Shown here: positions 41,001-41,393 of the stretch, one piece after another
Numbering within the stretch: the first letter of the stretch is position 1
Layout: each line of letters starts with the position of its first letter
Assembly: GCF_988243305.1 (NCBI RefSeq)
Contig: NZ_OZ547136.1
Reading direction: 5' to 3' (one strand)
Length of the DNA: 64,000 nt
Program-made: the position numbers and the translations under genes
Notes under the pieces: generated by a model
What the model was told of the DNA's origin: nothing
The model's database searches: none
The model's input: only the letters and a program-made list of their open reading frames with translations

Positions 41001-41393
41001 TAAGCCAGGAGACTATTGATCAATAATACTGCGTCATAAGAAATCTCTATTAGACAAAGTAGACGCTCCTTCCACATGCGCCACAAGAAACCTCTATTCC
41101 AGTGACACAATTACGCCTGATTATTTCCCTAGCCCGGAATATGAATAAAAACATCAACAAAGATTAAATTATTCAAACGTTACTGTTGCGTCTGCGGTCG
41201 TAGCAACATTCGACGTGGTGATGAGTGTTAAAAGAGACACTCTGATGTTCAGAGGGGTTATCGCGTTTACGGATCGTGGATGGCAGAAAACTTTCAGGAT
41301 CAGGTATCCATTTTAAACCAGAAATTGAGTGAGTTTGCCCCATCCATGCCCCAAGCGGTGAGATTGGAAGTAATTAACAACAGGTTACAAAAC

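Follow-up and report, generated by a model that had tools for sequence, protein, structure and literature searches.

The window analysed here is a stretch of 64,000 nucleotides from contig NZ_OZ547136.1 (NCBI RefSeq assembly GCF_988243305.1). Within it, the convergent genes yedK and fliE are separated by an interval of 393 bp (41001–41393), in agreement with the roughly 390 bp given by the initial annotation, which had been made from the sequence alone. The features identified in this interval and at its borders, including the far side of yedK up to yedF, are as follows.

40233–40257, plus strand: hairpin just past the yedF stop codon, TTCCCGCTG-TGGCCCA-CAGCGGGAA, with which the clear host sequence on that side comes to an end
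40258–40331, no strand: yedF–yedK spacer, the expected place of attR, with no surviving att core
40332–41000, plus strand: yedK (Pfam SRAP, PF02586, E = 4.8e-52)
41030–41051, plus strand: R1, a 22-nt imperfect direct repeat, TGCGTCATAAGAAATCTCTATT, at the left end of the yedL unit
41052–41076, plus strand: putative yedL deletion scar, in which 8 nt, AGACAAAG, are joined at 41059/41060 to 17 nt, TAGACGCTCCTTCCACA
41060–41126, plus strand: 67-bp segment, flanked in K-12 by yedL and the 3′ end of yedN
41077–41098, plus strand: R2, the second copy of the repeat, TGCGCCACAAGAAACCTCTATT, which lies beyond yedL in K-12
41127–41229, no strand: AT-rich filler shared with K-12, where it lies upstream of intG
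41230–41377, plus strand: integrase pseudogene fragment (equivalent of intG), covering about 46 codons at the end of a phage tyrosine integrase gene
41378–41392, plus strand: phage attP arm of 15 nt, CAACAGGTTACAAAA, found identically downstream of the stop codon of the IdasGreatGrand integrase gene
41393–41413, no strand: att core of 21 nt, CCTACACCTGCATGGACATCA, comprising the fliE stop codon and the last 17 coding nt
41394–41708, minus strand: fliE, whose 3′ end is the putative integration target, rebuilt by the phage copy

The GC content is 41.5% in the interval and 40.2% in its left part (41001–41229), versus 52.4% in the whole window. In the near-identical (99.9%) strain O121 RM8352, an "integrase" pseudogene has been annotated by PGAP within the gap.

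In E. coli K-12 MG1655 (NC_000913.3), the yedK–fliE gap measures 2210 bp, which is 1817 bp more than in the window. The annotation of NC_000913.3 places in this gap yedL, the yedN pseudogene (b4495), which we take to have absorbed the older yedM, and the intG pseudogene with the remark "cryptic prophage PR-G". A BLASTn search of the window against the K-12 locus (L002) gave three pieces: 40332–41059 corresponds to 4822–5549, 41060–41126 to 6153–6219 with 94% identity, and 41123–41708 to 7432–8015. Two separate K-12 blocks are missing from the window, one of 603 bp (yedL) and one of 1212 bp (yedN/espR). This alignment, which the initial annotation had proposed as a check, confirmed that K-12 carries extra material here (yedL, yedN/yedM and intG); the contrary outcome, an equally short gap in K-12, was not observed.

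Both junctions of the compact allele co-occur in 1015 of 5426 complete E. coli genomes (18.7%), 998 of them at ≥99% identity. The short gap is therefore not an assembly oddity. The compact allele is consistent with a single origin. Compact and yedL-only alleles together account for 1145/5426 genomes, and yedL is present in 1287/5426 (about 1290). We distinguished at least six structural states at the locus, and the earlier description of it as a known variable spot holds. No match to yedK–fliE was obtained in 47 of the 5426 genomes, and in strain PS2Canimalfeces3 nothing but the first 115 nt of yedK remains; such cases may represent larger deletions that extend into the flagellar region. In the plasmid search, the full-length matches were megabase-scale records typed as plasmids, and the remainder were partial.

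The integrase fragment and the attachment site at fliE

Our BLASTn search showed that the segment 41230–41413 is 88% identical at the nucleotide level to the 3′ end of the integrase gene of Escherichia phage IdasGreatGrand together with its attP. In a tBLASTn search of phage genomes, the translated fragment matched this integrase (434 aa) near its C-terminal end with 82.6% amino acid identity; weaker matches were the integrases of Fels-1, Gifsy-2 and Stx phages. An NCBIfam scan of the translated integrase frame assigned no family, the fragment being too short. A deletion of 11 bp after 41377, which is also present in K-12, has removed the integrase stop codon. Because of this, a spurious ORF of 64 aa arises at 41280–41474, in which the integrase frame runs into the antisense strand of fliE. 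We rejected it as a gene, and a Pfam scan of it gave no match.

The integrase fragment was found in 5159 of the 5426 complete E. coli genomes. A full-length copy of the integrase is present in eight, and six of these eight copies abut fliE. In another Escherichia species (L015), about 180 integrase codons are kept, with 97% identity.

The attP arm (41378–41392) is absent from the empty attB sites of Citrobacter, and the att core is common to the phage attP, the empty attB sites and the window. Arm and core form a 36-nt block, CAACAGGTTACAAAACCTACACCTGCATGGACATCA (41378–41413), that is identical to phage IdasGreatGrand and reaches 20 nt into fliE. When the Citrobacter sites were read against the phage, only about 21 nt were in common, CCTACACCTGCAT(G/C)GACATCA. 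In the window, the core is bordered by the phage arm on one side and by host fliE beyond 41413 on the other. The integrase fragment, the attP arm and the core thus have the make-up of an attL junction on the fliE end.

An attP that carries a duplicate of a host gene's 3′ end is known from temperate phages such as phage 21 and e14, both at icd, and from many lambdoid prophages of O157. As in these systems, a short core adjoins the integrase 3′ end in the window and extends over the end of the host coding sequence, and the phage copy rebuilds the host gene. Unlike in those systems, the target is fliE, only the final ~46 integrase codons are left, and attR is gone. A fuzzy search of 39900–41800 with the 36-nt and shorter cores found no second core copy (attR), the only copy being that at fliE. 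attR is presumed to have been lost by decay, and the far boundary of the remnant was placed by comparison only.

We compared the fliE loci of 80 species representatives. yedF lies about 50–100 bp past the fliE stop codon in 15 of them (Citrobacter and others), and yedD lies about 65–85 bp past it in 12 (Enterobacter, Leclercia, Lelliottia and others), so that an empty site was found in 27 representatives. Truly empty sites occur only outside E. coli. A full-length integrase, with 67–87% amino acid identity to that of IdasGreatGrand, lies about 30–40 bp from the fliE stop codon in 12 representatives. The end of fliE is therefore a widely used attB. In our literature searches, nothing relevant emerged on intG/fliE/yedK or on fliE as an attB or prophage integration site. 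In Salmonella enterica subsp. diarizonae (L035) and arizonae (L036), an unrelated insert of about 770–815 bp without integrase homology lies between yedF and fliE; the spot varies in Salmonella by another route.

Another type of remnant, present in 2621/5426 genomes (48%), has an unrelated interior next to fliE, with the order yedK–porin (ompC/nmpC-like)–ybcM–ybcL–emrE–integrase fragment–fliE. This gene order presumably follows the DLP12 map (int ... emrE, ybcL, ybcM ... nmpC). The emrE-type remnant has the same attL as the window and yedK at its far end, but its interior is unrelated to 41017–41256, and in its integrase fragment, which matches the phage with 97.6% identity, both the stop codon and the 11 bp are retained. 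This suggests that the emrE-type fragment goes back to a separate integration event, with at least two integrations in the history of E. coli. The K-12 intG/PR-G locus agrees with the window in position, flanking genes, integrase fragment and 11-bp deletion, and the two are 92.6% identical over 271 bp beside fliE. K-12 has the yedL (603 bp) and yedN (1212 bp) blocks whereas the window has neither, which is a difference between alleles of the same locus.

The yedL and yedN/espR blocks

In K-12, the yedL region has the order R1–AGACAAAG–yedL unit–TAGACGCCCCTTCCACA–R2. The order in the window is R1–AGACAAAG–TAGACGCTCCTTCCACA–R2, with 25 bp of the ends of the yedL unit kept. R1 and R2 are identical at 19 of 22 positions, a value reached in 0 of 300 shuffles. 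The scar was delimited by mapping to K-12 and by a three-way alignment with L014, a locus of another Escherichia species, in which an R1-like sequence and AGACAAAG lead directly into a yedL homolog (79% identity, for DNA and protein alike). The evidence favours deletion as the cause of the yedL loss, because 25 bp of the unit ends remain between R1 and R2, and because an insertion would need to recreate the contiguity of AGACAAAG and yedL seen in L014. In strain fS54a (L006, NZ_CM176577.1, 6673–6720), yedL is absent via a different junction with a single hybrid R1/R2 repeat. This repeat could have arisen by recombination between R1 and R2, or it could be the original target, still empty, of a yedL unit flanked by repeats.

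The junction left by the yedN/espR block lies at 41123–41126 and is shared with the yedL-only allele (L003). It gives no clear signature; we infer that the block was lost rather than never present. K-12 yedN is the decayed counterpart of the LRR/DUF5503 effector genes espR3/espR4. In O157:H7 strain H2495 (L005, 6780–10494), a tandem duplication of about 1958 bp has produced the order yedL–espR3–partial yedL–espR4. Our literature searches on espR3/espR4 gave nothing relevant.

In the phage collection, no homolog was found for 40960–41240 (which includes 41001–41229) or for EspR3, and YedL had no enterobacterial homolog there but only a mycobacteriophage acetyltransferase (41%). Since enterobacterial phage homologs were not found, the yedL and espR blocks could be later additions and not original cargo.

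Origin of yedK and use of the fliE site

YedK is an SOS-response-associated peptidase and the bacterial model for SRAP/HMCES abasic-site repair. Our analysis showed 83.8% amino acid identity between YedK and the SRAP protein of phage PHB10, whose gene lies directly across attP from the integrase gene, in an orientation that corresponds to the far end of a prophage. YedK is also 79% identical to a sequence close to the right end of the Gifsy-2 prophage, and DNA homology to Gifsy-2 starts at 40290, 42 bp upstream of yedK. The hairpin that follows yedF in the window has counterparts past yedF in the empty Citrobacter sites (L026, L031) and in Salmonella diarizonae (L035).

PHB10 itself was rejected as a fliE-targeting phage; its integrase has a different specificity, and only its SRAP gene matches (76% at the nucleotide level). 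IdasGreatGrand has no SRAP gene beside attP, and we found no single phage with both this integrase type and a yedK homolog.

yedK is absent from all empty sites and from the representatives of other Escherichia species, the absence in E. albertii being based on a listing of ORFs of at least 75 aa. In E. whittamii and two other Escherichia representatives, a DUF1398 (YbcV-like) gene lies beside yedF in place of yedK. The Escherichia loci L013, L014, L015 and L018 carry differing small genes between fliE and yedF, without yedK; L014 has yedL and a 204-aa gene that resembles, by eye, a YagU-type membrane protein.

In E. cloacae DSM 26481 (L055, 10310–15212), 4.9 kb separate fliE from yedD, compared with about 73 bp in related species. 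This insert contains integrase fragments, an acyltransferase-like ORF (judged by eye), a umuC fragment and yedK (86% amino acid identity). On these comparisons, yedK was probably carried in by the phage as cargo, at the attR-proximal end of the old prophage. In PHB10, the SRAP gene, cold-shock genes and umuDC stand together beside attP, and in DSM 26481 the umuC fragment adjoins yedK. This suggests that SRAP and translesion-polymerase genes form a recurring cargo module at this end of temperate phage genomes. An IS200/IS605 element (tnpA pseudogene and TnpB/InsQ gene) was seen at the yedK stop codon of E. coli GDSC2239PM (L007) and 1943 (L009). In strain 1943, the final 16 nt of yedK fall within the TnpB annotation, and yedK is one codon longer there (672 nt).

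Intact prophages occupy the fliE site in E. coli. In UTAK-1, the order begins with fliE, the core (attL), int and xis of a P22-like prophage of about 38.7 kb, which carries a tailspike gene, and continues after the prophage with the core (attR), the old integrase fragment, an LRR gene, yedK and yedF. The two cores are TGATGTCCATGCAGGTGTAGG, inside fliE, and TGATGAGCATGCAGGTGTAGG, beside the old integrase fragment; one flank of the latter matches the other arm of the phage attP. In a second E. coli strain, a P22-like prophage is found at the same site, within an emrE-type remnant. As judged from these genome sequences, E. coli phages still use the fliE site, and the core of the window analysed here may also be able to accept one.

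The codon for Ser102 of fliE, the third from last (41406–41408), is TCC in the window and in the phage attP, AGC in K-12 and TCG in Citrobacter. In UTAK-1, fliE took the phage TCC codon, and the host AGC was displaced to attR. Therefore, strand exchange took place at or beyond TGATG, which corresponds to window positions 41409–41413 on the opposite strand (CATCA). The last few fliE codons in the window may themselves be phage-derived.

We consider it fairly likely that yedK is not an old core gene but the attR-proximal cargo of a fliE-integrated phage, fixed in E. coli and absent from the locus in sister Escherichia, and that the remnant is a working landing site for P22-like and lambdoid phages, so that the contents of this spot keep being exchanged.

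Interpretation of the compact allele

Our preferred reading, to which we assign a probability of about 0.8, is that the 393-bp interval forms the interior of a prophage remnant reduced to a minimum, the compact allele of the "cryptic prophage PR-G" of K-12. A temperate phage with a lambda/P22-type tyrosine integrase would have used the last ~20 bp of fliE as its attB, and fliE would have stayed intact because the attP carried a copy of its end. Later deletions would have taken away nearly the whole prophage. They would have left the att core, the 15-nt attP arm and the last ~46 integrase codons on the fliE side, the cargo gene yedK on the yedF side, and, between yedK and the integrase fragment, about 230 bp of leftover sequence including the yedL deletion scar.

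The initial annotation was right about the additional K-12 genes and about the variability of the spot, but it regarded the short interval as the uninserted state, and this part does not stand. If the window were ancestral and had never been occupied, K-12 would have gained yedL, yedN and the integrase fragment by insertion, and the lack of 1817 bp in two clean blocks would be accounted for. This history is barely credible to us, as the integrase fragment, which had been listed among the K-12 extras, is present in the window along with the attL junction, which marks the interval as phage-derived. Phage-derived sequence covers 41230–41392, and yedK has phage homologs. The truly empty sites also look different: there, yedF or yedD is about 50–100 bp from fliE, whereas the stop codons of yedF and fliE are 1168 bp apart in the window. 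The absence of yedL, too, reads as a deletion scar and not as a site that was never filled, since R1 and R2 still enclose 25 bp of the unit termini, of which the left one continues directly into yedL in L014.

It is also unlikely that the remnant became compact early and that the yedN/espR block, and perhaps the yedL unit, was inserted later as a small mobile module, the window then being ancestral for espR. Such insertions would agree with the lack of enterobacterial phage homologs of EspR3 and YedL, with the 22-nt direct repeats that bound the yedL unit, for which the single hybrid repeat of fS54a could be the empty target, and with the finding of one shared espR-less junction against two different yedL-less junctions. 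All four presence/absence combinations of the two blocks exist, but homologous recombination between strains can yield these as well. For yedL, the retention of both repeats and of 25 bp of the unit ends is explained only by an internal deletion; for espR, neither a target duplication nor a recombinase is present, and the similarity at the junction is weak and short. We think it very improbable that the interval has been kept for a functional non-coding element, whether a small RNA, a regulatory site or the terminators of yedK and fliE. No Rfam match was found in 40800–41950 at E ≤ 1, no promoter-like sites were present, two terminator-like sites were found versus 1.1 expected by chance, and 41017–41256 is replaced by unrelated DNA in half of the E. 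coli genomes. One weak terminator-like hairpin does lie on the minus strand at 41254–41240, about 140 nt past the fliE stop codon, and the compact allele is conserved at ≥99% in the 998 genomes, though this may equally reflect recent common descent.

Among the alleles of a known prophage remnant, the compact one is the most eroded; it is not an empty site. This is ordinary biology that has already been annotated, as the K-12 record labels the spot a cryptic prophage remnant; mildly new are only that the fliE attB has been defined explicitly and that yedK probably came from a phage. The current understanding of prophage decay is unchallenged, and the practical value is modest. For annotation, the lesson is that a variable spot need not be empty where its allele is short. 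The true empty site, the att core and the point of strand exchange are now defined for the family of phages that integrates at the fliE end. Comparative genomics gains a table of allele frequencies at this hotspot, drawn from 5426 complete genomes, and those who study YedK are alerted to its probable origin in a phage.
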